Positions 43,953 to 58,068 of a DNA stretch of 64,000 bases are shown here, one piece after another. How positions within the stretch are numbered: position 1 is the stretch's first letter; each line of letters starts with the position of its first letter. The DNA is taken from positions 420,494-484,493 of the forward strand of contig CP070751.1 in the NCBI GenBank assembly GCA_020348445.1, read 5' to 3'. The notes below the pieces were generated by a model. The model made no database searches and had not been told where the DNA came from. It saw only the letters and a list, made by a program, of their open reading frames with translations. Both the position numbers and the translations under genes were made by a program. Source of the stretch: Thermoplasmata archaeon (GTDB taxonomy: Archaea > Thermoplasmatota > Thermoplasmata > GCA-020350865).

Positions 43953-45074
43953 TTAAATGTAACCCTCCATTTCAGCCAGCTCTGCATTCATTATGGAGCA
44001 TCCAGCAGCCCCTCTTACTGTATTATGTATTAAAAGGTAGAACCGTATTTTGCCATGGATCCTTTTTATTCGGCCGATTGTGACGGCCATACCCCTTGCC
44101 CTTTCAGGCTCTCCATTGTAAACATCAAATATTGGTTGGGGCCTGCTTTCATCTTCGGTTACGATAATGGGCCTTTTTGGTGACGTAGGAGTTTTATTAT
44201 CAAGACCTTCATAACCAGATAGAGCTCTTTTTACCTCCTCTTCTGAAACATCTTCCTTAAAATCCACCAAAACGGACTCAAGATGTCCGTCTCTTACAGG
44301 AACCCGTGCACAGCTTGCATATACATTGATAGGTGAATGTTCTATCCCAGAATCTGTCAATTTACCCAGTATCTTCCTGCATTCCACCTCGATTTTCTCC
44401 TCCTCGGATTGAATATATGGAACTATATTTCCCGTAATGTCCAGGGAGGGCACACCAGGATATCCAGCTCCCGAGAGGGCCTGGTAGGTGGTAACGACCA
44501 CGCTCTTTATTCCAAAGGCCTCATGAAGCGGTTTTAAGGCCGTGGCAAGGCCTGTTACAGAGCAGTTGGCATTGGTCACCACATACCCGGATTTTGTCTT
44601 CTTTTGATGCTCCACAAGAGCCAGATGATCTGGATTGATATCGGCGATAAGCAGGGGAACATAATCTGCCATACGATTGGCACTGGCATTTGAGAAAACG
44701 AAAAAACCCAAAGATGCCAGATCCATTTCCACATCCTTGGCTATTTTAGGCGGCAGGGCGCTGAATATCAGTTTTATTTCCTTATCCTTGAAGGTTTTAG
44801 GATGGATTTGCTCCACATTCATCTCGCCTATTCCCTCGGGCATTATTTCCTTTAATCTCCAGCTTGCTATATCCCTATAAATATGACCCTGGGATTTTCC
44901 TGAAGCTACCACAACTCGCAAATCGAACCACGGATGGCCCCAAAGAAGCGCAACAAATCTTTGTCCCACGGCTCCTGTGGCTCCAATTACCGCAACTGGG
45001 ATTTTATCCAGATTCTCACGACCCTGACATTCACGATATATAGAATATTTTCTTTTTTTCATTCCAGATAGCAT
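43953..45074 (-). CDS. asd: Aspartate-semialdehyde dehydrogenase (archaeal type); true start probably about 20 codons downstream
   Basis: GATGAVGQRF, NANCS, QALSGAG, SCARVPVRDGH and HNTVRGAAG motifs. Confidence 0.95.
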   Translation of the reverse strand: MLSGMKKRKYSIYRECQGRENLDKIPVAVIGATGAVGQRFVALLWGHPWFDLRVVVASGKSQGHIYRDIASWRLKEIMPEGIGEMNVEQIHPKTFKDKEIKLIFSALPPKIAKDVEMDLASLGFFVFSNASANRMADYVPLLIADINPDHLALVEHQKKTKSGYVVTNANCSVTGLATALKPLHEAFGIKSVVVTTYQALSGAGYPGVPSLDITGNIVPYIQSEEEKIEVECRKILGKLTDSGIEHSPINVYASCARVPVRDGHLESVLVDFKEDVSEEEVKRALSGYEGLDNKTPTSPKRPIIVTEDESRPQPIFDVYNGEPERARGMAVTIGRIKRIHGKIRFYLLIHNTVRGAAGCSIMNAELAEMEGYI

Positions 45075-45199
45075 CTTTTATTAAATAAACTTTTTACTGA
45101 AAATATCGGGTCGTGAAAATGGGGTGATTTATAATAAATATATCAATTATATAACTTCCTCTATGTAACGAATCGATATTTAGAGAAAATAGGGTGGTA

Positions 45200-45370
45200 T
45201 TTTTTCATGGCGCCCCACCCAAGGCGCTCGGTAGTAAGGGGAGCTTGACGATGAAAGGACAGTTGAGTTCCTTAGTGTTGGAGATGAAGAGAATCATGGA
45301 TATCTGATGTTTCAGATTTTTATCAGCTTGCCCTTTCTTCAACACCTCCCCTTAGGGCTCAAGCCCTTGG
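45200..45370 (-). ncRNA. Conserved structured leader-like element, copy 1 (no RBS part)
   Basis: On the - strand: 5' hairpin GGGC-TTGA-GCCC, GGGGAGGTGT box, then GAGCGCC-TTGGGTG-GGGCGC hairpin. BRE/TATA (CGAAAA-TTTTATATA) lies about 25 nt upstream. Confidence 0.6.
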
Positions 45371-45607
45371 TACTTAATTGTCTTGCCAGATATATAAAAT
45401 TTTCGAATCAATTTTATTTATTAATATTAACTTATTAACATTATCTTAACTTTTATTTAAATCGAAACAAAATAATAAAATATCCAGATGATAAAAATAA
45501 TTGAATTTGCCCCGATTTTGCCGAAAATCCCCTCTAATCTCTTGATTTTCTTTAAAAAATATAAAAAAAGGAAGAAGGTTTAGGGTGGACATTAGCGTTC
45601 CAATAGT

Positions 45608-47521
45608 TCAATGTATTATTCTCACTGTGTCGGATCCTTCAAAAGACATGCCGCCAATAAGCTGTCCCGTGACCTTGAATTCAGCAGGTCTTCCGTAGCC
45701 TCCTCCTACTACCAGATCCTCAAGATCACCGCGGTCGAACTTCACATTCAAAGAGTCCCCTGTCAGTGTTGGATTTTCGGCCGGAATAATACTCTCCAGA
45801 TACATTGTTGCTGGATCAATATCTGCCTCATCATAACCATCTGGCAGCTTGATTATGCACGAGACCCATTTGCCATTGCTCTTGAGATTCAATGTCTCTG
45901 GGTGGATCTCTATATCTGCGGGAATCAATTTTATCAATTGGGTCAGATAAGCCTTTGCACCCCACAATTGCAGGGTCTGGGTCCAGTAGGCCCTAACGCC
46001 TGTTAAGTTGGTACCTGGTTTGACCCACACTCCAAAGTGCACCCACTCGCAGTGCTCAATGGGATGGTCCGGGTCCTTCCATATGATTTCTGTACCTTTT
46101 CCGCTGGGAAGCCAGGTGATATGCGGTGGAGTTCCCCATCCGCCGTATAAAGTGGGTCCCCAAGTCTTGTTCACCCAGTAATAGCTGGGAGCCTTTCCCT
46201 TCCAGTACCATTTATCTATGTCCGATGGCTGCACCCCGAATAGCTCCAACTCGAAATTATCGACTTTCTCATGGTAGTCGTTGTGTACGTCGAAGTTAAC
46301 CAACTGGCCGACTATGGTCGGAGTGCTATTGGCCTCTATTATGGCTTCATTGACAAAATGGCCCTCGATGATATTGGGAGTGGATCCAAATGCCACAGTG
46401 TAGCGAACCAAAACAGCTCTATCGCCTGGATTGGTGGGAATATCATACTCCAAAACATCACCGGCTTCCATTATGGCTGGGTCCCTGATTCCATCTCCAT
46501 CCATGTCCACATCTATCTCTTCCCAAGGTAACATCTCTGTCCCATCCCATGTGAGGTCATCCAACGGGATTTCGTCCTGAAGGACCACGAAGTCACGGAG
46601 AAGTGCCGCGGGCTCTGGGTGCGGTTCGCCGGCCGGGGGTTCTGGCTCGTATACAATAAAATCTGTTACTCCTCCGGAAAATTGTCTCCAGAACTGAATT
46701 GGTGCTGGAATGCGCTTTACCTTCTTCTCCAGTCTGAGGGCAACACCGAAATGGATCCACTCGCATGGCTGAACAGGATGACCCGGGTCTATCCATTCTA
46801 TCTCTATGCCACCTGGTATAGTGTTAATCTGCGGTGGTGCGCCCCAACCCCCATACCATACTGTTCCAAGGGATGTGTTGTACCGGGTAGGTGGACCTGC
46901 TGGATCGTAGACATAGAGAATATCGTCTGGTTCTATATTGCCGTAAAGCTCCAGCTCGAAGTTGTCAATGGGTTCGTGATAGTCGTTGTGAACGTCGAAG
47001 TTCGAAAGGGAGCCCCTAATGGCTGGGGGACTTCCTCTCTCGAGTATGGCCTCGTTGATGAAATGTGCCTCGATCACATCGGGAGAAGATTCCCACGCCA
47101 CTGAGTATCGAACTAAAACTGCATTGTCGTTATCGGTAATGGGTATTGTTACCCTTATTTCTCCGTTTAAGGGTATTAATGCGCCTGGGTATGGATCTAT
47201 CTCAACCCAATGTTGTCGCAGTATTTCTGGGTCCTGTATTGTGAGATGGTTTAGTGGAATTGCCATATCTGCCACAGCATACTCGCGCTGAACATATACT
47301 CCATCATCAGTTCCTGGTGGATCGAAGAATATGATGTCCTCAACACCGATTACAGCTTCCCCTGTTGGATCTGTAGGGTCCCTTACGATTCGCCACTTCT
47401 GCCACGGGACCGGGATCTTTTTCACTTTCTTTACATCATAATCTCCCGCTGTGGGAGTCACGAATAGCGCCATTGCTACCAATGCTAAACAAAGCAACAC
47501 GCTTATCGCTTTTCCTCGCAT
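45608..47521 (-). CDS. Secreted protein with a tandem-duplicated ~235-aa unknown domain and a TLNLKSxGKW-type C-terminal domain
   Basis: Signal peptide; two copies of AVLVRY...HFxNEAI...NFDVHNDYHE..DNFELEL...YGGWG.PP...CEW.HFGV. Strong RBS. Confidence 0.85.
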   Translation of the reverse strand: MRGKAISVLLCLALVAMALFVTPTAGDYDVKKVKKIPVPWQKWRIVRDPTDPTGEAVIGVEDIIFFDPPGTDDGVYVQREYAVADMAIPLNHLTIQDPEILRQHWVEIDPYPGALIPLNGEIRVTIPITDNDNAVLVRYSVAWESSPDVIEAHFINEAILERGSPPAIRGSLSNFDVHNDYHEPIDNFELELYGNIEPDDILYVYDPAGPPTRYNTSLGTVWYGGWGAPPQINTIPGGIEIEWIDPGHPVQPCEWIHFGVALRLEKKVKRIPAPIQFWRQFSGGVTDFIVYEPEPPAGEPHPEPAALLRDFVVLQDEIPLDDLTWDGTEMLPWEEIDVDMDGDGIRDPAIMEAGDVLEYDIPTNPGDRAVLVRYTVAFGSTPNIIEGHFVNEAIIEANSTPTIVGQLVNFDVHNDYHEKVDNFELELFGVQPSDIDKWYWKGKAPSYYWVNKTWGPTLYGGWGTPPHITWLPSGKGTEIIWKDPDHPIEHCEWVHFGVWVKPGTNLTGVRAYWTQTLQLWGAKAYLTQLIKLIPADIEIHPETLNLKSNGKWVSCIIKLPDGYDEADIDPATMYLESIIPAENPTLTGDSLNVKFDRGDLEDLVVGGGYGRPAEFKVTGQLIGGMSFEGSDTVRIIH

Positions 47522-47527
47522 CTGTTT

Positions 47528-47730
47528 TCACCTCCTCCCTGCGAAGGGATTATTGGTTTTTTTTGTCATTGCGCCCCACCTCGGCGCTCAATATTGGGGG
47601 ATTGTTATTTAAGAACCCTTTTGTTAAGTTATTAAGAGATATTCTAAAAATCACTGATATCCTGGCTATGAGATTAACTTCACAAGTTCTCTTTCTCTCT
47701 GACACCTCCCCCCAAAGGCATTTGCCTTGG
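47528..47730 (-). ncRNA. Conserved structured 5' leader, copy 2
   Basis: 5' hairpin CCAAGGCA-AA-TGCCTTTGG, GGGGGGAGGTGTCAGAGAGA, GAGCGCCGAGGTGGGGCGC (47571-47589), then AAAACCAATAATCCC..GGGAGGAGGTGA before ATG 47521. Confidence 0.7.
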
Positions 47731-48246
47731 CAGTTGATTGCAATGAAAATACTTAATATTTTCGTATATATATAAATTAAAAATTATATTAACAATCTCG
47801 CATTTGTATTACACTTTTACATTCTTTTTTGTTACAACTTTGCAATACAGCGCCTTATCTATGGTAAACACTTTAATGAAAAATCGATAATGCGTTCTTT
47901 GGGGGAGATGTAAATTGGGAGAGCGAATTATAAGTTGGGATTAAAGGAACCAAACCAACATATTCAAACTCTCGAAATCTATATCAAAGCCCTGGGATAT
48001 TTTTCCACCCCCCCCAAAGTTTTTCCACGCGAAGATTTGTATGGAATAGAAATATATAAAAGTTGCGAAGAGGCAATATGATATTGTTATTTTTTTCTTT
48101 TATATTTAACTATATATTAAATCAACTCTTTAAAATAAAAATGCCAGACCTGAAAATTTATAACAAAATAGTTGAAGATATGATAACCAGTTTTAAGGCT
48201 TCTAAATAAAAAAAGAAAAAAGTGAAAGATGCGTGGGTTGGGCTTA

Positions 48247-49326
48247 TCATTTGACTCTAAAGGCATTGCTTTCCCCCTCGAATTCTGTACCATCAACGAA
48301 CTTTCCTGTGATTTTTATGTTGTATACACCTGGTGGAAAGACGTCTTCCATTTCGCTGCGATCGAACTTGACCATTCGTTCAAGTATACCGTCATTGTCT
48401 TCATCCTTGATGTAACCGTCCTCTGACTTCACGAACCCGTATTTCTCATTTAATTCCGGCGGAATCGATTTTTCCATGAGGATCGTTTTTGGATTTATAT
48501 CTCTGACAGATAATGTGTCATTGATTTCGATATAGACGGTGACCCAATTTCCGCGCACACCTCCAGTTTTAAGGATGTTCAGTGTTGGAGGATTTATTTC
48601 TACACCAATAACAGTAACAGGAGGTACCTCTTTGGTGATGATCCCAAATCCCATATCCAGCGAATCGCCAGTCTCGGGGTCCCTCAGTTCCTCCCATGTT
48701 ATCGAATTGGGATCTCCGCCGGCCCAGTATCCCCAGACCGCATCATCCTCCCATTGAACATTAGAGGTCTTCCAGCCCCAAATGCCACCGGTGGCCGTTA
48801 CCTGAATGTCAAGCCAATAGATAGTTCCCAATTCCTGATAGTAGGCATCACCATCAGGGATGGTAACTTGATATTCGTACCAAAATTCATGATCATCCAA
48901 GTTCCATACATCATTATGGGGATCAAGCCAATTCTGCGTTGAATTAATTTGTGGTAGTATGTAGTCTGGCAGTGCGTTGTAGGACCACAGCTCATCACCC
49001 GGTTTACTGAAAAGAGGGCCAGGGCCATCCGGATCAGGGATATTTTCGTGAAGGCTCAGATGCACGTTCGTGATAATACCTATTTGATCCTCTTCCCATG
49101 ATCCCCAAAAACGAATTCCTACAATCAATCCGCTCTTGTTGCAAGGAAAGTCATCTGCCAAGATTGCAGGCCAGGTGGCGTTCACGTCCCAGCCACCTGG
49201 ATTCGGCGACTGTAAATACATGGGTTCAACCAAGGGATCGCCGCTCACAGTTCTCATTTCTGGTAAAACTGCACAGGTACCAATCAACAAAACACAGACC
49301 AAAATTCCAACTATTTCCTCTCTCAT
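48247..49326 (-). CDS. Secreted protein (ADDF...FWGSW jelly-roll-like domain + TLN-type C-terminal domain)
   Basis: Signal-like N-terminus; LADDFPC...IRFWGSW and YWLDI motifs. C-terminus is similar to that of the 45608-47521 product. Confidence 0.82.
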   Translation of the reverse strand: MREEIVGILVCVLLIGTCAVLPEMRTVSGDPLVEPMYLQSPNPGGWDVNATWPAILADDFPCNKSGLIVGIRFWGSWEEDQIGIITNVHLSLHENIPDPDGPGPLFSKPGDELWSYNALPDYILPQINSTQNWLDPHNDVWNLDDHEFWYEYQVTIPDGDAYYQELGTIYWLDIQVTATGGIWGWKTSNVQWEDDAVWGYWAGGDPNSITWEELRDPETGDSLDMGFGIITKEVPPVTVIGVEINPPTLNILKTGGVRGNWVTVYIEINDTLSVRDINPKTILMEKSIPPELNEKYGFVKSEDGYIKDEDNDGILERMVKFDRSEMEDVFPPGVYNIKITGKFVDGTEFEGESNAFRVK

Positions 49327-49333
49327 TTTTTTA

Positions 49334-49595
49334 TCACCTCCTCCCTGGCTTTGGGATTATTGGTTTTTTGACACATCGCTGTGCTCATCTTTCACACAGC
49401 AAATGCCGCGATTTGCCCGTGCAAATCCTGCCATAGCGCCCCACCTCGGCGCTCATTAATGGGAAGGCTGATTAAAAAAGAGCAAATTGTTCTTAAAATT
49501 GGAGATATGATCATTTATATTGTAAATATCTGGATTGTTTGATTAGAACCATCTGCTCCAATTCTCTCTGACACCTCCCCCCTAGTTTCTAGGAT
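49334..49595 (-). ncRNA. Conserved structured 5' leader, copy 3 (with ~60-nt insertion)
   Basis: 5' hairpin CCTAG-AAA-CTAGG, GGGGGGAGGTGTCAGAGAGA, GAGCGCCGAGGTGGGGCGC (49436-49454), AAAACCAATAATCCC..GGGAGGAGGTGA. TATA-like TTTATAT about 20-25 nt upstream. Confidence 0.7.
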
Positions 49596-49688
49596 GCAAA
49601 AGGAAATTGCGATATAAATACTTAAATCTTATGTAATTGAATAAAATGTTTTAAACAATGTGCCAATAGAAAAGTATTTATTTCAAAC

Positions 49689-52600
49689 ATGGTTTATGAG
49701 GTTTGGGGGAGTAATACGATAGTGGCAAGGGACGTTACTCAAAGGATCATATATACTTCAATCCTAGCACTGGTACTTACAATCTGCATTCTCATACCTA
49801 GCCCAATACCCGCCGATTTTGAATACAGGGCAGATTACCCAACAGGCAACGGACCCCATGCAGCACGCCTTGCAGATTTGGACGATGACGATGATTTGGA
49901 TATCGTTACCTCAGATTACTATGCAGACAAGGTCTCGGTGCTGTTAAATGATGGCGAGGGAATATTTTCCAAGGAGAGTGAATATGTAACAGGTGACGGC
50001 CCCAGATCGTTTTTTCTTGCCGATGTGGATAACGATTTTGATGAGGATATCGTCACAGCCAATTATATTGATGATACAGTATCGGTCTTAAAAAACCATG
50101 GAAATGGCGCCTTCGCTCCAAAGGTAGATTATGATGCGGGTGCCGGCCCCTTCTACATTTTCTTGGCTGATGTCGGTGAGGATGCAAACAATGATTTGGA
50201 TATTATCACGGCAGATGATCAGGACGATCGAGTCTCGGTTCTGGAAAACGACGGCAGCGGAGCTTTTTCCAATAGAAACAGCTATCAGGTGGGATCCAGA
50301 CCAAAGGGTGTGTTTTGTGCCGATCTAAACGACGATGGCAAAAGCGACATAGCATGTGCCAATTGGGCAGATTACACTGTCTCGATTCTTTTTAACAAAG
50401 GGGACGGCACATTTAAAAGTGAGATAAATTACGACACCGGCAGGGGCCCGCGTTCGATTTTTCTTGCGGATGTAAATGGGGATGAATATCCCGATCTTGT
50501 CACTGCAAATCAGTACGACAACACCACCTCGATCTTGATTAACAATGGGGACGAAACCTTCAAATCCAAGGTCGATTACACTGTGGGTACCAATCCATTA
50601 TCAATTCTTTTAAGCGACATAGACTATGACAATGATAACGACATCTTGACAACGAATCTACATGACAACACGATATCAGTTCTGAAAAATGATGGACAGG
50701 GGAATTTCCAGTCAAGAATCGATTACAGTACGGACCGTGGCCCATATTCTGTCGTCTTGGGAGATGTAAACGGTGATGATGAAGTGGATCTTGTCACAGC
50801 CAATAACTATGCCGACACAGTTTCAGTACGCTATTCCCACTTCCCCTCATCGATTATGGTAACACAACCTGATGGAGCAAATGACATTACCGACACTTCC
50901 TATATGATAACGTGGGAGGATTGCTATCCATACGGCGAGGCAACAATAACACTTTACTGGGATGATAATGGAAATGGTCTTGATGGAACCGAAATTGCAG
51001 GCAGTCTTTCCGAAGATGACGATGGTATTGGAGGAAGATATTATTGGAACATCTCAAACATGCCTGAAGGTGATTATTGGATCTATGCAAAAATTGATGA
51101 TGGAGTATATGAGCCCAGCTATGATTACTCCCCAGGTCCGCTCACCATTGACTACTCCCAATCATCCAACTCGCCTCCAACATTTCAAATAATCGAGCCC
51201 GATGGAAACGGAGATTTCGCAGATATCGAGTTCACAATAATGTGGATGGATTCAGATCCCGATGATGACGCTGCAATTTCCCTTTACTATGATACAGATA
51301 ATATTGGCTTCGACGGTACCCTGATCGTGCAAGGGCTAGGTGAGGATGCTGACGGCACTTCTGGTTTTTACACGTGGAACACCACAAATATGACTGAAAG
51401 CAGGTACTATGTATACGGTATTTGTAACGACGGTGTAAATGATCCAGTTATGCATTACAGCTCCTTTTCCCTATTGATCAATCATACATCTTTTGAAAAT
51501 GATCCTCCTTCAATGGAATTCTTGGAGCCGGATGGGGTTGATGATAATGCACATTTAGAGTTTCTAATCGCATGGACAGACTCGGATTCTGATGATGACG
51601 CACAAATTTCCCTTTATTATGACACAGATTCTGTAGGTTATGACGGTGTTTTGATTGCCAGTGGGATTTCCGAGAATGCTGACGGAGGTTTGGGCTACTA
51701 TTCATGGGACACCACAGATATTCCCGAGGGTAGGTACTTTATCCTTGGCATCTGTAACGATGGAATTAACGATCAAGTGGAGCAGTACAGCCTGCACCAG
51801 GTGATAGTCAATCACACACCCAAAAACGACCCGCCTGATATCGAGATTCTGGAACCCGATGGAGTTGATGATAATGCCCATATCGAGTATCTTATCACAT
51901 GGGTTGATTCAGATTCAAATGATGATGCAAAGATTTCACTTTTTTACGACACTGATTCCTCGGGCAAGGATGGAGTATTGATAGCGAGCGATTTAAGCGA
52001 AGATGAACAAGGCGGAACTGGTGGATATTTTTGGGACACCACATCCATTTCAGAGGGTGAATATTGGATCTATGCCAAGATCGAAGATGGCTCTTTTGAG
52101 GTAAAATATAATTACAGTCTCGGTCCTCTTACCGTCGATCATCTGGCCACATCGAATAATCCTCCTTCATTTCAAATTATAGAGCCGGATGGAGATATGG
52201 ATTTTGCAGATTTCGAATTCACAATCATTTGGCAAGACTCAGACCCTGACGACGACGCTACAATTTCTCTGTATTACGATATAGATGATGACGGTTATGA
52301 TGGTGCCCAAATCGTATCAGGGCTGGGTGAGGATGCTGATGGCAAATCTGGAATATATACGTGGATAACAGTCAAAATTCCAGAGGGGAAATACTACCTA
52401 TATGGTGTTTGTGATGATGGCACAAATGACGCTGTGAGGCATTACAGCAGCTTTCCAGTTACAATAGAGCATGGGCCTTCAGAGGACAACAATCTTGATC
52501 CGCAAAGGAACTATTCACCAAAAATTCTGATAGTTGAGCCAGATGGTAAAAACGATTGGGCAAATACCGAGTACATGATAACATGGATAGATGCAGATTC

Positions 52601-53561
52601 AGATGACGATGCATCGATTTCACTATATTATGACTCAGATTCCTCGGGCTACAACGGCATTTTAATCGCGGATCGCATAGGCGAAGATGAGTATGGCAAT
52701 TCCGGAATCTACATTTGGGACACCACCTCCATCCCTGAGGGTTCGTACCATGTTTATGGGGTAATCGAGGATGGTACGGATTTTTCCAGGGATTACAGCC
52801 AGGGGAAAATCACAATTAACAGAACACTAACGTTCAATACCGCCCCAAAAATATTGATCCTCACTCCAGAAAAGGGCATCGTTTTTGTGGATTACAACTT
52901 CACAATAAAATGGATCGACAGCGATCCTGATGATAGTGCAACCATATCGCTGTATTATGACACTAACCAAAACGGTTATGACGGGACTTTGATAGTCTCA
53001 GGATTGTCCGAAGACGATAAGGGCGATTCTTTTCTCTGGGACGTAAAGGATCTACCCGAGGGAGAATATTACATATATGCTGTAATTCAGGATCAAGAAA
53101 ACGATCCCGTGTACGATTACAGCGATGGGAAGGTAAAAATACATCATCCCCAACCTGAAGGGAAGGAGAAAGAACCAGAAGAGCAAATAAATCCAAATCT
53201 CCTGGCACTCATGATTCTGATGGTGCTCATCATCATATCATTGCTTCTTCTCATACTGAAAAAAAGAAGAGAGGCAGAAGGAGATGAGGAAGAAGAGGAA
53301 GAGGACTTCGAAGATTCGGAAGGGGGAGAACGAAAACCCTCTTCCGAAGAGGATATTGATGAGGATGAAATAGACGAAGATCTGCTTCCCGCGACAGAGG
53401 ATACCAAAAAGGAGGCACCACGACCTGAGGAAGATGCCAATGATGAAATAGTTAAGGATCTGCCTCCCGCGCCAAAGGAAACAGAAAAGGAGGTTCCACA
53501 ACCTGAGGAAATAGCCGATGATGAAATAGACGAGGATCTGCTTCCTACACCAGAAGAATAG
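49689..53561 (+). CDS. Large surface protein: FG-GAP propeller + seven ~110-aa Ig-like repeats + TM + acidic tail
   Basis: DxD.D.D.DIVT.N repeats and seven EPDG...W.DSD.DDDA.ISLYYD repeats, followed by a TM and Glu/Asp-rich tail. The start may be GTG 49722. Confidence 0.88.
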   Translation: MVYEVWGSNTIVARDVTQRIIYTSILALVLTICILIPSPIPADFEYRADYPTGNGPHAARLADLDDDDDLDIVTSDYYADKVSVLLNDGEGIFSKESEYVTGDGPRSFFLADVDNDFDEDIVTANYIDDTVSVLKNHGNGAFAPKVDYDAGAGPFYIFLADVGEDANNDLDIITADDQDDRVSVLENDGSGAFSNRNSYQVGSRPKGVFCADLNDDGKSDIACANWADYTVSILFNKGDGTFKSEINYDTGRGPRSIFLADVNGDEYPDLVTANQYDNTTSILINNGDETFKSKVDYTVGTNPLSILLSDIDYDNDNDILTTNLHDNTISVLKNDGQGNFQSRIDYSTDRGPYSVVLGDVNGDDEVDLVTANNYADTVSVRYSHFPSSIMVTQPDGANDITDTSYMITWEDCYPYGEATITLYWDDNGNGLDGTEIAGSLSEDDDGIGGRYYWNISNMPEGDYWIYAKIDDGVYEPSYDYSPGPLTIDYSQSSNSPPTFQIIEPDGNGDFADIEFTIMWMDSDPDDDAAISLYYDTDNIGFDGTLIVQGLGEDADGTSGFYTWNTTNMTESRYYVYGICNDGVNDPVMHYSSFSLLINHTSFENDPPSMEFLEPDGVDDNAHLEFLIAWTDSDSDDDAQISLYYDTDSVGYDGVLIASGISENADGGLGYYSWDTTDIPEGRYFILGICNDGINDQVEQYSLHQVIVNHTPKNDPPDIEILEPDGVDDNAHIEYLITWVDSDSNDDAKISLFYDTDSSGKDGVLIASDLSEDEQGGTGGYFWDTTSISEGEYWIYAKIEDGSFEVKYNYSLGPLTVDHLATSNNPPSFQIIEPDGDMDFADFEFTIIWQDSDPDDDATISLYYDIDDDGYDGAQIVSGLGEDADGKSGIYTWITVKIPEGKYYLYGVCDDGTNDAVRHYSSFPVTIEHGPSEDNNLDPQRNYSPKILIVEPDGKNDWANTEYMITWIDADSDDDASISLYYDSDSSGYNGILIADRIGEDEYGNSGIYIWDTTSIPEGSYHVYGVIEDGTDFSRDYSQGKITINRTLTFNTAPKILILTPEKGIVFVDYNFTIKWIDSDPDDSATISLYYDTNQNGYDGTLIVSGLSEDDKGDSFLWDVKDLPEGEYYIYAVIQDQENDPVYDYSDGKVKIHHPQPEGKEKEPEEQINPNLLALMILMVLIIISLLLLILKKRREAEGDEEEEEEDFEDSEGGERKPSSEEDIDEDEIDEDLLPATEDTKKEAPRPEEDANDEIVKDLPPAPKETEKEVPQPEEIADDEIDEDLLPTPEE
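53364..53558 (+). repeat. 78-bp (26-aa) tandem repeat, about 2.5 copies, in the cytoplasmic acidic tail
   Basis: GATGAAATAG..GATCTGC begins at 53364, 53442 and 53520. Confidence 0.85.
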
Positions 53562-53654
53562 AAGAAATTGGGGTCCTCTAAGGTTTTATCGGGTTTTTAT
53601 TCCTTTAAATCGTATTTTTCTCACATCTATTATTCCAATAAAAAAATGTGCGAA

Positions 53655-53686
53655 GGCCAAGTCAAAAAATAAAAAAAGGGGAGAGA
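53655..53686 (-). terminator. U-rich archaeal terminator-like tract after the tail-tube gene
   Basis: On the - strand, CTCTCTCCCCTTTTTTTATTTTTT follows the stop codon. Confidence 0.5.
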
Positions 53687-53689
53687 GAC

Positions 53690-54196
53690 TCAGGCCCTCT
53701 CGATAAGTTCGGTTTGTATCACGATCACCTCGACAGCTACACCGCTTGGGTTCGAATCCAACGGTTCAATATAATAAGCTGAAGGCCAACATCCATGGGC
53801 GTTGTACCTTGCCTTCTCGGTGTGTCCGTGGTCCATAAACACGATGGACATGGATTTCTTATCTACAGGGTAATCGAGATTGGATTCGTACCACAGCCAG
53901 AGCTCGTCGTTGTCTATCAATCCCCGCCTCAGGATTATGGGGCCGTAATGGGCATTCCCAGGCATTAGGGTGACCCTGTTTGGATCAGTTCCGTCCCTGT
54001 ATTCGATGACCTCCATCTTTCCGCAAACTCCTTCCACACTCATGTACGATGCCGAGGCTATACCATCTATCTCAACCACGAAGTTCGAGCTGGGCAGGGG
54101 CTCAGGTTTTCCACCTGCGGGTGCAAGAGCAATTGTGCTGGATCCGATGATAAACGCCAGGACACCGAATATCGCGAATAATATCCTCCTGCTCAT
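53690..54196 (-). CDS. Phage T4 gp19/eCIS (Afp1-like) tail-tube protein with N-terminal export signal peptide
   Basis: F.VEIDG...F/Y..V.G, IEYRDG, MPG...YG.I.LRRG, LW.W, KK..SI...D, WP and VAVE.I..Q.E motifs match the gp19 tube consensus as I recall it. N-terminus MSRRILFAIFGVLAFIIGSSTIALA. ATG 54196 follows AGGAGGTGA. Confidence 0.88.
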   Translation of the reverse strand: MSRRILFAIFGVLAFIIGSSTIALAPAGGKPEPLPSSNFVVEIDGIASASYMSVEGVCGKMEVIEYRDGTDPNRVTLMPGNAHYGPIILRRGLIDNDELWLWYESNLDYPVDKKSMSIVFMDHGHTEKARYNAHGCWPSAYYIEPLDSNPSGVAVEVIVIQTELIERA

Positions 54197-54199
54197 GAT

Positions 54200-54360
54200 T
54201 TCACCTCCTCCCATGTTTGGGGAACTGGGTATTTCTTATGCGCCCCTCCTCGGCGCATTCTTCTTTAAAAAATTGAAGAGGATAATTCTTATTTATCAGT
54301 AAAAAATGTCATAATACGGGTTCTGCTTATTTTATATCATCACCTCCCAGAGCTCTGGCC
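54200..54360 (-). ncRNA. Conserved structured 5' leader, copy 4 (shorter)
   Basis: 5' hairpin CCAGAGCTCTGG, GGGAGGTGA, TGCGCCGAGGAGGGGCGCA (54240-54257), then AAATACCCAGTTCCCC..GGGAGGAGGTGA before ATG 54196. Confidence 0.62.
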
Positions 54361-54552
54361 ATATAGTATTTTGGTTTTATTAAGATTTTGTGATAATATC
54401 TATACAATATCAAATCAAATCTGTGTCTTTGCCCAATACCTTATAATTGAACTTAGCCATATGAAATATCTTTTAGGTGAATGTTTACTAATAAATCAAA
54501 AGTTTTATTACCTGAGAGCAACTTATATAAATGAGTCTTTGGGGCGACGTGT

Positions 54553-57500
54553 ATGAGGATATCGACGATTATAGTATCTCTGATACTGGTCTTTATAGCA
54601 TACAATATCACCACAGCAAATACTACTTCCGGCCCCTCACCCCTGGACACAGAGCAGGTATCATTCATGAATGTCACATATGATGTGGGTTTGCAGGGTG
54701 TGGGAGGCCAATTCCTTGCCTGGGGAGACTACAACAACGACGGAAATCAAGATATCCTCGTAAACGGACGCAGGCTCTTTAAAAATAACGGAGACCCTGA
54801 CTATAACTTCACAGAGGTCACGGGTCAGGTTGGAATCTCAGGGGGAAGCTACGGAACCTGGGCAGACTGGAACAACGACGGTTACTTGGATTTCTTTTGT
54901 GCAGGCTCAGACAAACTCTATAAGAACAACGGACCACCTGATTATGATTTCTCAGATGTCACGGGCTCCTCTGGAATCATGCAGGAAAGCCATTCCACCG
55001 GCTGTGGATGGGGCGATTACGACAATGACGGTGATGTGGACCTATTCAAAATCAGGGGAGAGGACTGGGATGCTGGAATATATTTCCCTAACTCTTTCTG
55101 GAGGAACAACGGTGATGGCACCTTTACAAATGTAACTGTAGATGCCGGGGTGGACGAATATTCGGATCCAAAGTACTCAAGAGGAGTGGCCTGGGCAGAT
55201 TACAACGATGACGGCTGGCTTGATATATATATCTCCAACTATCGTCAGCTGGACAATTACCTTTATGAGAACAATGGCGACGGCACGTTCACGGACGTAG
55301 CCCCCGAAAAAGGAGTGGCAGATGCTCCATCACATGAGACCGGAAATCCAGATCCATTTGGAAAAGCTGGACATAGTGTAGGTGCAGTTTGGGGCGACTT
55401 TGATAACGACGGTTACCTAGATCTTTGGGTAACTAACCTCAACCACAAGGATTCTGTACGTACAAGTGATGACTCATTGCTTTATAGAAACAGCGGCCCT
55501 CCTGACTTTACTTTCACTAACATGCGAGGCTCATCAGGTATTCCCATTAAACCAATTATTGAAAATCCTCTCACTCGCCAAGATGAACTCTTTGTGGGAT
55601 GCGCCTGGGGAGATTATGACATGGACGGTGATTTGGACCTATACCTTCCCCAGATTTACGATATCAGTTATGCCTACTCCTTCCTGTACATGAACAACGG
55701 TGATGGTACCTTCACTGATGTGACAACAGAGGCCAACGTTAGGGTTTGGGACACATATGCCGGTTGCTGGTGCGATTACGACAACGACGGGGATTTGGAT
55801 CTCATCACATCGGGCAGGGATTCAGGGGGTAACGCAGACCCGCATTTTGTTCACCTCTTCAGAAATGAAATTACCCTGGAAAATTGGCTGCACTTGAACC
55901 TCAAGGGGGATGGTTTTTACACGAACACAGCAGCAATAGGGGCCAGGGTCACTGTGACAACAGATTTGGGGGACAGCCAGGTCAAGGAGGTCTCGGGAGG
56001 AGGCGGCCCCCACGGTCATCAGAACTCACTTGTGCAGGAGTTCGGCCTGGGCGCATATTCCGGGACAGTGGATGTAGAGATCAGATGGTCTGACGGCAGC
56101 ATCCAGATAATAGAAGATGTTATCACCAATAAACTGTTAAATATCACGGAATCAAAAGGTGACCTAATTGTAACTGAGATATCCATTGATGAAGATCATC
56201 CCATCACAGGCGATAATGTTCTGATCTCGGCCACAGTGAAGAACATCGGACCCACGCACATAAACACAGCCGAGGTAAAGATCTATTTGGATGAGATAGA
56301 CGATGCCAACCAGATACCCCCCACAAGGACAATTACTAACATCCCATCCGATTCTGAAACCACAACATCCATTCCATGGGACACCGAATGGGTATCTGGA
56401 TCGCATACCCTTTATGCAAGGGCAGAAATAATTGATCCACCATATTCGGGTCCAACAAGTGCAAAAAGCTTGATTATCTTCATAAGGGCTCAAAATGAGC
56501 TTCCCGTGGCAAATCTCAGCGCGGATCCATCATCCACAGACAAGGGGGGATCTGTTTCCTTTGATGCAGAAAACTCAACTGATGATACGCAGGTTACAGA
56601 ATATTTCTTCGACTTTGGTGACGGAGAGGCCAGCGGATGGATTACAGAGACGAAAATAGACCACATCTATTATAATGGCGGGGATTACACTGCATCCCTT
56701 ACGGTAAGGGATGAGGACGAGGGAGAAAGCATAAACACAGAAGAGTTGACGATCGAGGTTTATGCAAAACCCAAGGCAGTCCTTACAGCAAATATAACAG
56801 AGATATACAAGGGCGAGAGCATCACTTTCAATGGTTCCCAATCTACTGATGAGGGGGGTACTGTAGAGGAATTCAATTTCGATTTCGGCGACGGTGAAAG
56901 TTCTGGTTGGATTACCCAATCATCTGTTTCGCACCAGTACAATTCTGCAGGGCAATTTTCCGCATCCCTTGTTGTGAGAGACAACCACGGCAATACCAGT
57001 GATAATCCGGAAATTGTAACAATCGACATTAATGCAAAACCCCATGCCGTTCTTCTGGCTAACACGACCTCGATTGTTATAAGTGATTCAGTGATGCTCG
57101 ATGCATCGGAATCCTCGGATGATGACGGCTCTGTCAAGTGGTTTTATTTTGTCTTTGGCGACGGTGATAAATCCGGCTGGGTAATAGATGACAAGATTAA
57201 CCATTCTTACAACAGAGAGGGATTCTTCACGGCCTCCCTTACTGTACGGGACGATGAAGATGATGAGAGCGAAAACACTGCCGAGATAATCATAACTGTT
57301 ACTGGACTACCCAACAAGCCACCCACAGCCACCATCGATTATATCGATCCAAATCCTGCTTTATCAGGTATGGAAATCACCTTTCGCGGAAGTGGTCGGG
57401 ATGAGGACGGTAATATTGCAGGATACCAATGGAATTCTGATATCGAAGGTCTTCTCAGCAGCTCTTGGTCCTTCTCCACCTCGGTGCTCTCTGTCGGTAC

Positions 57501-58068
57501 CCATATGATATCATTCAAGGTGCAGGATGACGATTTGACGTGGTCTACCGAGGCAACTGAAATCCTTATTGTCAAGGACACGAACCAAAAACCCACAGTT
57601 GAGATCATATCTCCCGATGATGGCGAGAGGGTATCTGGAATTTTAACGATAAGCGGCACTGCAACTGATTTGGACGGCGAAGTGGTGGAGGTTCAAATCA
57701 GGATCGACGATGGGGCCTGGGAGTCTGCACAGGGCACCTCAGACTGGAGCTTTCAATTGGATACCAATTTATATTCCAAGGGAGAGCATATTATTACTGT
57801 TCGGGCCAGTGATGGAGAGGAAAACTCAGAGGAAATTTCTTTTTCCATTGTGATATTTCAAAAAGGAGAGGATGGTGATGAGGATCCGCCCGCCTTTTTA
57901 ATAATAGGACTGGTGGTCATCGTAATTTTGGTAGTTTTAGTGCTATCTTTTGCTTTGGGCATGCCCCCCAAGAAGAAAGAAGAGCATCCCCTGTTCAAAC
58001 CCGTAAAGCAATATCCCCAGAATGTGCAACCTCCCCCGAAGCAGCCTGGAAACAGATGGAACTGGTAA
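54553..58068 (+). CDS. CRTAC1/ASPIC-UnbV-type FG-GAP protein with CARDB, PKD and Ig-like domains and C-terminal TM
   Basis: WGDYDNDGD.D repeats, NWL...L.G...NTAAIGARVTV (ASPIC/UnbV), three DFGDG PKD units, TM and Pro-rich tail. Confidence 0.9.
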   Translation: MRISTIIVSLILVFIAYNITTANTTSGPSPLDTEQVSFMNVTYDVGLQGVGGQFLAWGDYNNDGNQDILVNGRRLFKNNGDPDYNFTEVTGQVGISGGSYGTWADWNNDGYLDFFCAGSDKLYKNNGPPDYDFSDVTGSSGIMQESHSTGCGWGDYDNDGDVDLFKIRGEDWDAGIYFPNSFWRNNGDGTFTNVTVDAGVDEYSDPKYSRGVAWADYNDDGWLDIYISNYRQLDNYLYENNGDGTFTDVAPEKGVADAPSHETGNPDPFGKAGHSVGAVWGDFDNDGYLDLWVTNLNHKDSVRTSDDSLLYRNSGPPDFTFTNMRGSSGIPIKPIIENPLTRQDELFVGCAWGDYDMDGDLDLYLPQIYDISYAYSFLYMNNGDGTFTDVTTEANVRVWDTYAGCWCDYDNDGDLDLITSGRDSGGNADPHFVHLFRNEITLENWLHLNLKGDGFYTNTAAIGARVTVTTDLGDSQVKEVSGGGGPHGHQNSLVQEFGLGAYSGTVDVEIRWSDGSIQIIEDVITNKLLNITESKGDLIVTEISIDEDHPITGDNVLISATVKNIGPTHINTAEVKIYLDEIDDANQIPPTRTITNIPSDSETTTSIPWDTEWVSGSHTLYARAEIIDPPYSGPTSAKSLIIFIRAQNELPVANLSADPSSTDKGGSVSFDAENSTDDTQVTEYFFDFGDGEASGWITETKIDHIYYNGGDYTASLTVRDEDEGESINTEELTIEVYAKPKAVLTANITEIYKGESITFNGSQSTDEGGTVEEFNFDFGDGESSGWITQSSVSHQYNSAGQFSASLVVRDNHGNTSDNPEIVTIDINAKPHAVLLANTTSIVISDSVMLDASESSDDDGSVKWFYFVFGDGDKSGWVIDDKINHSYNREGFFTASLTVRDDEDDESENTAEIIITVTGLPNKPPTATIDYIDPNPALSGMEITFRGSGRDEDGNIAGYQWNSDIEGLLSSSWSFSTSVLSVGTHMISFKVQDDDLTWSTEATEILIVKDTNQKPTVEIISPDDGERVSGILTISGTATDLDGEVVEVQIRIDDGAWESAQGTSDWSFQLDTNLYSKGEHIITVRASDGEENSEEISFSIVIFQKGEDGDEDPPAFLIIGLVVIVILVVLVLSFALGMPPKKKEEHPLFKPVKQYPQNVQPPPKQPGNRWNW

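Follow-up and report, generated by a model that had tools for sequence, protein, structure and literature searches.

A 64,000-nucleotide stretch of a Thermoplasmata archaeon genome (contig CP070751.1, positions 420,494 to 484,493; hereafter the window, within which all coordinates are given) carries four copies of a noncoding leader, three of which precede genes for secreted proteins, among them a T4 gp19-like tube protein. An earlier description made from the letters alone, which we call the sequence-only reading, had presented this leader as a conserved unit of six parts in constant order: a TATA-like box, a 5′ hairpin, a GGG(G)AGGTG box (G-box), a spacer with pyrimidine tracts, a GCGCC-type hairpin, and an A-rich segment with a CCC..GGG pairing fused to a ribosome-binding site. 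It proposed that the whole is an undescribed cis-regulatory RNA. To our knowledge, archaea have yielded very few cis-regulatory RNAs, and hardly any that governs many unrelated genes together. The locus raises the questions of which of these parts is conserved as RNA, how widely it occurs, and how it might act on the genes behind it.

The conserved core and its covariation

Within positions 45000–54600, which we examined for the sub-elements, the minus strand carries all four copies where they had been placed. The hairpin GCGCC-GAGGTGG-GGCGC occurs exactly at 47571–47587 (copy 2) and 49436–49452 (copy 3) and with one change, the loop GAGGAGG, at 54240–54256 (copy 4); the number of matches to GCGCC-GAGGWGG-GGCGC expected by chance, from 100 shuffles of the window, is 0. 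Copy 1 is a divergent copy, whose hairpin (45210–45227) has an 8-nucleotide (nt) loop (UUGGGUGG) and scores just 13 bits against the family model described below. The A-rich segment with its CCC..GGG pairing, claimed for three copies, is borne out: copies 2, 3, and 4 terminate in a CCC..GGG hairpin fused to GGAGGAGGTGA and followed by ATG, an end that is missing from copy 1, at 45.2 kb.

The conserved part of the leader, namely the GCGCC-type hairpin together with the A-rich segment behind it, forms, on the evidence of covariation, an H-type pseudoknot of ~45 bases. Its first stem (S1, also P1) has five base pairs (GCGCC/GGCGC) and its first loop (L1) is GAGG; the following loop bases, N-G-G, pair with a downstream C-C-N′ to give a second stem (S2) of three base pairs stacked directly on S1. 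The linker (L3), which is 10–13 nt long and A-rich and ends in AAAUA, can carry an inserted hairpin or a kink-turn. The inserted hairpin may be large, with a purine-rich 5′ arm, as in copy 3 and several others. In this fold, the conserved adenines of L3 would sit in the minor groove at the junction. L1 and L3 are conserved at 93–100% among matches, a range inflated by the gathering of those matches with a model built from the family itself.

Across the 97 rows of our alignment (A4), P1 is paired in 97.9% of cells, and three of its pairs change on both sides. The stems found elsewhere in this genome and in metagenomes include GCUCC/GGAGC, GUCCC/GGGAC, GGGCC/GGCCC, and ACUCC/GGAGU; the two invariant pairs, C4-G14 and C5-G13, both adjoin the junction. 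The sequence of the stem is conserved beyond the needs of pairing. G·U pairs in P1 are found solely when the stem is read on the strand of the gene, which argues for an RNA.

The pairing that closes the knot varies in concert as well. Loop base N10 tracks the base that follows the tail ..AAAUACC: U occurs with A (ACCAAU), C with G (ACCGAU), and A with C (ACCCAA); loop A meets tail U in three long-linker copies, and U·G is found in two copies. After three mis-parsed rows had been corrected, the N10/N′ combinations numbered 42 for U-A, 41 for A·C, 8 for C-G, 2 for U·G, and 1 for A-U, with other mismatches in 3 rows; two further A-U copies were read by eye in the source genome. The sequence-only reading had pointed to covariation among more homologs as the test of its structure, and the covariation of the pseudoknot pairing exceeds 500 of 500 shuffles (reached by 0/500) as well as all slid controls. 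Elsewhere in S2, the pair G11-C is replaced by A-U at one locus (L028) and G12-C by U-A in three copies of a genome from another class (G231), and all three S2 pairs show covariation. Such a change can be followed on a single gene family. In one lineage, the leader of a gene for an ATP-cone protein of 154 amino acids (aa) has U-A at N10/N′, and the leaders of its 38%-identical homologs in four other metagenome-assembled genomes (MAGs) have C-G; the change therefore occurred with the leader staying on the same gene family.

A subset of copies bears an addition around P1. In 26 copies P1 is followed by N-R-U-G-A, and GA precedes P1 in 21 of these versus 10 of the 70 without the 3′ motif (Fisher 2e-9, computed on sequences that are not independent of each other). 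Judged by its letters, the arrangement GA/P1/N-R-U-G-A would be the signature of a kink-turn with P1 as its C helix and a GAU-type bulge. It is complete in 21 of 96 family members, about a quarter, and carriers of it turn up in several families as well as in another class and in metagenomes. In the window it is present in copies 1 and 2, imperfect in copy 3 (UAUGG), and lacking in copy 4. The kink-turn is an optional add-on, and the invariant core is the pseudoknot.

On its 3′ side, the knot is followed in most copies by a hairpin of 3–6 base pairs (P3), for which many compensatory variants occur (CCUGC/GCAGG, CCCGC/GCGGG, CUCGC/GCGGG, CCCUG/CAGGG, UCUCU/AGAGA, and CCUA/UAGG) and whose 3′ arm directly adjoins the Shine-Dalgarno core. 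In copies without P3, 5–9 nt separate the tail from the Shine-Dalgarno sequence; P3 therefore holds the knot beside the ribosome-binding site. The Shine-Dalgarno sequence itself lies outside the knot, 5–30 nt downstream of CC-N′, the 3′ strand of S2. It matches the 3′ end of 16S rRNA (GGAUCACCUCCU) over at least 8 nt in 14 of 32 leader genes, versus 2.4% of long background open reading frames (ORFs).

The 5′ half of the leader does not share in this conservation. A DNA search with the whole leader of copy 2 in four congeners matched the knot region alone, with the 5′ domain not detectable, and the six-part leader consequently does not stand as a conserved unit: what is conserved is the hairpin and the A-rich segment, as a pseudoknot. 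Because it escapes detection in these congeners, the 5′ half, with its spacer of 86–121 nt, appears to be local, specific to local paralogs. Its parts are nevertheless present as described, with 5′ hairpins, GGG(G)AGGTG boxes, and pyrimidine tracts in all four copies, and the TATA-like boxes are likewise real, save that the box of copy 4 (at 54.3 kb) is poor. The G-box pattern alone was as frequent as its reversed control and is uninformative as a search key. In other lineages a TATA-like box stands anywhere from ~60 to ~200 nt upstream of P1, and other leaders repeatedly show a purine-rich box near the predicted 5′ end and a pyrimidine tract directly before P1. Pairing of the G-box with the pyrimidine tract, a further proposal of the sequence-only reading, occurs in the minimum-energy folds of copies 1–3. 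The stability of the 5′ domain relative to shuffles was z = −4.4, +0.3, −3.0 (−2.96), and +0.75 for copies 1–4, better than shuffles in two of the four, and the pairing may plausibly form.

Distribution and downstream genes

The source genome (5.16 Mb, 41.5% G+C) contains 29 matches to the 17-mer with at most two mismatches and none to its reversed control. From 25 short-linker copies (A3, R1) we built a covariance model, which finds 30 sites in the same genome. Of 151 genomes sampled from the class, 24 have sites at E ≤ 0.001, and these fall in 11 of 29 families: f15 (4/4), f20 (4/4), f22 (3/3), f21 (2/2), f5 (1/1), f7 (1/1), f1 (3/4), f13 (1/2), f9 (2/8), f25 (1/4), and f4 (1/16). Among well-sampled families, no match was found in f6 (0/16), f8 (0/10), f11 (0/15), f16 (0/17), or f18 (0/12). 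Four genomes from other classes of the phylum carry the motif, one of them with 11 copies. Metagenomes were scanned with a pattern that leaves the outer stem and the covarying bases free; 80 loci were returned, in 28 of which the stem is fully paired, and ~26 of those represent a full leader with a ribosome-binding site, the remaining loci being obvious chance matches in coding DNA. Within genomes, copies are grouped in islands.

Across the whole window, no Rfam 15 family reached its gathering score, preQ1-I (RF00522), SAM-II, the sRNA162 family (RF02792), and box C/D small RNAs included. With E raised to 10, positions 45000–54600 yielded five chance-level matches to small nucleolar RNAs and microRNAs (16–20 bits, versus cut-offs of 39–106), in keeping with the statement of the sequence-only reading that the leader fits none of the riboswitch classes it considered. 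In the literature, searched by sequence words and by topic, we found no paper that describes the motif. Since it has neither an Rfam family nor a paper describing it, the motif is apparently undescribed, and we regard it as a new family of an already known kind. The broader proposal of an undescribed archaeal leader RNA common to a set of genes thus holds: the element is without an Rfam match, covaries strongly, lies upstream of and co-oriented with its genes, and is conserved across families and classes.

Copies with an identifiable gene are always upstream of and co-oriented with an ORF; the exceptions to this link are copy 1, an orphan discussed below, and a few genome matches without a clear ORF. 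A simple test detects a signal peptide in 63 of 93 downstream ORFs (~70%), and several of the failures are mis-called start codons. The exported proteins mostly lack a Pfam family. The clear cytosolic exceptions are small proteins: SnoaL/NTF2-like (7), ATP-cone, GYD, YdhR, ABM-like, and one Hsp20. No common pathway or metabolic theme unites the downstream genes. The leader had been said to link the tube gene with two other secreted-protein genes. All three do encode signal peptides; the set, however, extends to ~30 genes in the genome and is not limited to secreted proteins. A search of 60 relatives with the tube protein as query found no homologs; as its gene bears the leader all the same, the module seems, from these comparisons, to be portable.

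Three groups of leader-bearing genes showed further peculiarities. About 12 paralogous genes of the source genome, at positions 755943, 1481183, 1484935, 2240954, 2244555, 2248416, 2401285, 3174797, 3179775, 3859747, 3863338, and 4774078, encode small (155–171 aa) exported proteins, of which the one scanned (L010) is without a Pfam family; each is found behind a ~200-nt leader ending in the knot, and AUGAUA stands 5′ of P1, not 3′. Three leaders of G231, the genome from another class (L161, L163, and L165), contain extra copies of the 5′ half of P1 and the loop (GCGCCAAGGUGUGG...) upstream of the knot, which run into a different hairpin and then CCUACCUCAUCGC; these may be tandem or alternative pairings. 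Finally, the C-G-variant ATP-cone proteins (154 aa; L065, L076, L090, L095, L097, and L099) are 81–91% identical among MAGs assigned to two different families (G120, G029, G048, and G039), with three copies in G120. This identity across families could reflect recent transfer or redundancy of binning or assembly.

How the pseudoknot may act

We tentatively favor the view that the H-type pseudoknot, as part of a 5′ untranslated leader, influences in cis how translation starts on genes that are dispersed in the genome and mostly encode exported proteins. The tail (U)ACC(N′) has two complements, the loop (N)GG and the GGUG/GGG stretch of the ribosome-binding site. With the knot formed, the tail would be captured and the ribosome-binding site would stay open; with the knot unfolded or displaced, the tail and the 5′ arm of P3 would partly mask the ribosome-binding site. 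Any factor that stabilizes or melts the knot could in this way tune the whole gene set together, with L7Ae (acting on copies that have the kink-turn) or some other protein as candidates, along with a small ligand, ions, and temperature. Partition functions computed for 75 leaders put the median cost of opening the ribosome-binding site at 2.66 kcal/mol when unconstrained, 2.69 kcal/mol with P1 locked, and 0.87 kcal/mol once the tail and loop bases are made unavailable in imitation of the knot. In the absence of the knot, the ribosome-binding site is predicted to pair chiefly with the L3/tail segment. The arrangement resembles leaders in which an anti-Shine-Dalgarno segment masks the Shine-Dalgarno sequence or is drawn off by decoy pairing, in that an upstream pyrimidine segment is complementary to the ribosome-binding site and a competing structure sets its availability. 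It departs from them in its competitor, which here would be a loop resembling a ribosome-binding site that captures the tail in a pseudoknot, and in that the masking is predicted and weak.

Several points weigh against this account. The predicted masking amounts to ~2 kcal/mol and derives from nearest-neighbor energies without knot terms, and the knot does not include the ribosome-binding site, whereas that of known pseudoknot riboswitches does. The phylum-wide conservation of L1 and L3 exceeds what a passive tail trap would appear to need; this strong conservation suggests a bound partner, which could be a ligand, L7Ae or another protein, or the ribosome itself. In the 41 copies with A·C, the third knot pair is nonstandard; there, G9 may pair with the C at N′, leaving the A bulged out, or a ligand or protein may contact the N10/N′ position. 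The aligned sequences are related and mostly model-found, and both the conservation figures and the shuffle tests overstate their independence. The transcription start, and even transcription of the leader, is inferred from TATA-like boxes. Moreover, two ATP-cone homologs (L171 and L172) are without the element, and the link to that family is therefore not universal.

The motif is compact (~45 nt), reaches dozens of copies per genome, and is spread across a phylum whose members are uncultured archaea of sediment and soil. Should it prove to be a switch, it would mark out a post-transcriptional regulon and give a handle on control of the cell surface; as a constitutive module, it would be a natural, portable high-expression leader for archaea. 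Its small size and clear compensatory variants make it directly testable in vitro.

The near-invariance of the loops across the phylum also fits a ligand-sensing riboswitch aptamer, in which a metabolite, an ion, or a signaling nucleotide, perhaps bound at N10/N′, would set a regulon of surface and stress proteins; we regard this as unlikely, albeit worth serious consideration. In size and topology the motif is like preQ1-I, preQ1-II, and SAM-II: each is a small (~40-nt) H-type pseudoknot in a leader just upstream of the ribosome-binding site, with an A-rich loop 3 that would follow the minor groove of stem 1, tolerance of a hairpin insert, and conserved loop nucleotides. Retention of the nonstandard A·C in so many copies points in the same direction, as does the presence of many copies per genome before diverse genes, a trait of cyclic di-GMP (c-di-GMP) riboswitches. 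The likeness to c-di-GMP-I (GEMM) riboswitches, which are bacterial and have a known ligand, is nonetheless one of distribution alone, with many copies before secreted or surface genes of unrelated families; fold and size differ. The motif also parts from the preQ1 and SAM-II riboswitches in showing no sequence or profile similarity to them, in having a C-rich tail rather than the ribosome-binding site as the 3′ strand of S2, in being unlinked to queuosine or SAM genes, and in being archaeal, with dozens of copies per genome before unrelated genes. An aptamer is further disfavored by the lack of a common metabolic theme among the downstream genes, by the position of the ribosome-binding site outside the knot, by the failure to find a conserved alternative helix that could serve as expression platform, and by the lack of a match to any Rfam aptamer.

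A protein operator, which we likewise hold to be improbable to a similar degree, would place translation or mRNA fate under the control of L7Ae, bound to a kink-turn on P1, or of another RNA-binding protein, as L7Ae acts on its own mRNA. L7Ae-responsive kink-turn stem-loops are found in archaeal 5′ untranslated regions (Daume et al. 2017, PMC5539422; Huang, Ashraf and Lilley 2019, PMC6298567), and in the l7ae leaders regulated by L7Ae the C helix is capped by a loop and accompanied by a 3-nt bulge and tandem G·A pairs (PMC6298567). The motif shares with these its place in an archaeal leader adjoining the Shine-Dalgarno sequence and, in about one-quarter of copies, the order GA/stem-loop/N-A-U-G-A. 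The co-occurrence of the GA and N-R-U-G-A flanks, the spread of kink-turn variants over several families and another class, and the conservation of the stem sequence beyond pairing all favor such an operator. Yet roughly three-quarters of the copies, among them copy 4 and in effect copy 3, keep the knot without the kink-turn signature, and beyond the G·A pairs there is hardly any pairing in the non-canonical helix. The ribosome-binding site stands outside the stem-loop, so that the published occlusion mechanism is not directly applicable, and the loop bases are paired with the tail and hence not free for a loop-reading protein. Compared with the L7Ae leaders, moreover, the kink-turn here is optional, the Shine-Dalgarno sequence lies outside P1 and its flanks, and the targets are exported and small cytosolic proteins, not l7ae. 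A broader and also doubtful reading would make the knot an aptamer representing a new riboswitch class specific to archaea, or else a site at which a global RNA-binding regulator docks, with a pocket at N10/N′ beside GAGG; it would coordinate a secretome and stress regulon across uncultured Thermoplasmatota, and the kink-turn variants would add L7Ae as a second input.

Translational control through the pseudoknot may also be set against a constitutive element of stability or processing, in which the knot, with no switching, keeps nucleases off the mRNAs of abundant proteins or designates a site of processing. The association with very strong ribosome-binding sites and with genes likely to be highly expressed would agree with this, as would the portability of the module onto a tube gene with no homolog found in 60 relatives and the failure to find an expression platform. 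We consider it quite improbable, since a block to 5′-exonucleases would be expected at the very end of the RNA, yet the knot lies 35–200 nt in from the predicted 5′ end, and since P3 fixes the knot relative to the ribosome-binding site, which points to translation.

Readings at the level of DNA, be it a palindromic operator, a mobile repeat resembling MITE or REP elements, or an upstream ORF begun from the Shine-Dalgarno-like loop, can draw on the inverted repeat GCGCC-N7-GGCGC, on the grouping of copies in islands, and on an AUG at Shine-Dalgarno spacing after the loop of kink-turn variants, and are scarcely credible given the G·U pairs on the sense strand alone, the covariation with a strand-specific tail 10–80 nt away, which cannot be a property of DNA, the upstream and co-oriented position of every copy with an identifiable gene, and the presence of the element on related ATP-cone genes in different classes. 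Pseudoknot covariation contradicts the palindromic operator and the MITE, and a terminator was rejected alongside them. The copies do not show the scatter, regardless of gene starts and orientation, that would mark a mobile repeat: except for orphan copy 1 and a few unclear cases, each has an ORF downstream in the same orientation and a Shine-Dalgarno sequence behind it. The upstream ORF was rejected because most copies, all except the kink-turn variants, have no AUG after the hairpin and neither frames nor lengths are conserved. The view of the loop as a Shine-Dalgarno-like motif, suggested by the sequence-only reading, is weakened by GAGGCGG variants, which lose complementarity to the 16S 3′ end and keep pairing with the tail.

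The copies in the window and their genes

All features of the copies are on the minus strand. Copy 1, at 45192–45399, begins with a TATA-like box (45390–45399), a 5′ hairpin (45355–45366), a G-box (45343–45353), and a pyrimidine tract (45236–45243). Its P1 (45210–45227) is flanked by GA and CAUGA, a kink-turn signature, and the knot strands are S2a at 45215–45217 and the tail CCA (S2b) at 45195–45197. It has neither P3 nor a Shine-Dalgarno sequence. The next gene, asd (43953–45074), begins ~120 nt further on and has its own TATA-like box; this, with the missing 3′ end, makes copy 1 an orphan.

Copy 2 scores 43.3 bits (E 4e-9). Its 5′ domain (47594–47776) comprises a TATA-like box (47765–47776), a 5′ hairpin (47712–47730), a G-box (47691–47713), the spacer, and a pyrimidine tract (47594–47603). 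P1 (GCGCC/GGCGC, loop GAGGUGG) at 47571–47587 has kink-turn-like flanks, GA at 47588–47589 and AAUGA at 47566–47570. The loop bases U-G-G (S2a, 47576–47578) pair with CCA (S2b, 47554–47556) within the end of the A-rich linker and the tail (47550–47562), and P3 (CCC..GGG), the Shine-Dalgarno sequence GGAGGAGGUGA, and ATG follow at 47519–47548. The gene (45608–47521) encodes a 637-aa signal-peptide protein without a Pfam family.

Between copy 2 and the DUF7901 gene of copy 3 lies a fifth, decayed copy (47900–48061, minus strand), which consists of the 5′ domain alone. Neither a P1 hairpin nor a knot follows it; it retains a TATA-like box (48052–48061), the run GGGGGGGGTGG ~35 nt downstream, and a CATCTCCCCC tract near 47900.

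The 5′ domain of copy 3 (49461–49620) has its TATA-like box at 49611–49620, hairpin at 49581–49593, G-box at 49560–49582, and pyrimidine tract at 49461–49468. P1, with loop GAGGUGG, is at 49436–49452 and S2a at 49441–49443, the flanks of P1 being GA and UAUGG. A structured insert of two hairpins (P2, 49370–49430) lies within loop 3 of the pseudoknot, and the A-rich tail with CCA (S2b, 49361–49363), P3, the Shine-Dalgarno sequence, and ATG occupy 49324–49369. The gene encodes a 359-aa DUF7901 signal-peptide protein (48247–49326).

Copy 4 scores 46.5 bits (E 5e-10) and has no kink-turn flanks. In its 5′ domain (54275–54358), the hairpin lies at 54347–54358, the G-box at 54338–54348, and the pyrimidine tract at 54275–54281. 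P1, with loop GAGGAGG, spans 54240–54256 and S2a 54245–54247; the tail AGAAAUACCC with S2b (54227–54229), P3 (CCCC..GGG), the Shine-Dalgarno sequence GGAGGAGGUGA, and ATG (54194–54196) extend over 54194–54236. The ORF list had placed the tube gene at 53690–54214, with its start at an ATG that lies inside the Shine-Dalgarno sequence; the true start is likely the ATG at 54194–54196 behind it, giving a gene (53690–54196) for a secreted, stand-alone T4 gp19-like tail-tube protein of 168 aa with a signal peptide (PF06841, E 1.6e-29). A single paralog, 33% identical, is encoded in the source genome at 595011–595445. Between the leader-bearing genes, on the opposite strand and without a leader copy, the window also encodes two very large FG-GAP/PKD/Ig-like surface proteins of 1290 aa (49689–53561, plus strand) and 1171 aa (54553–58068, plus strand).

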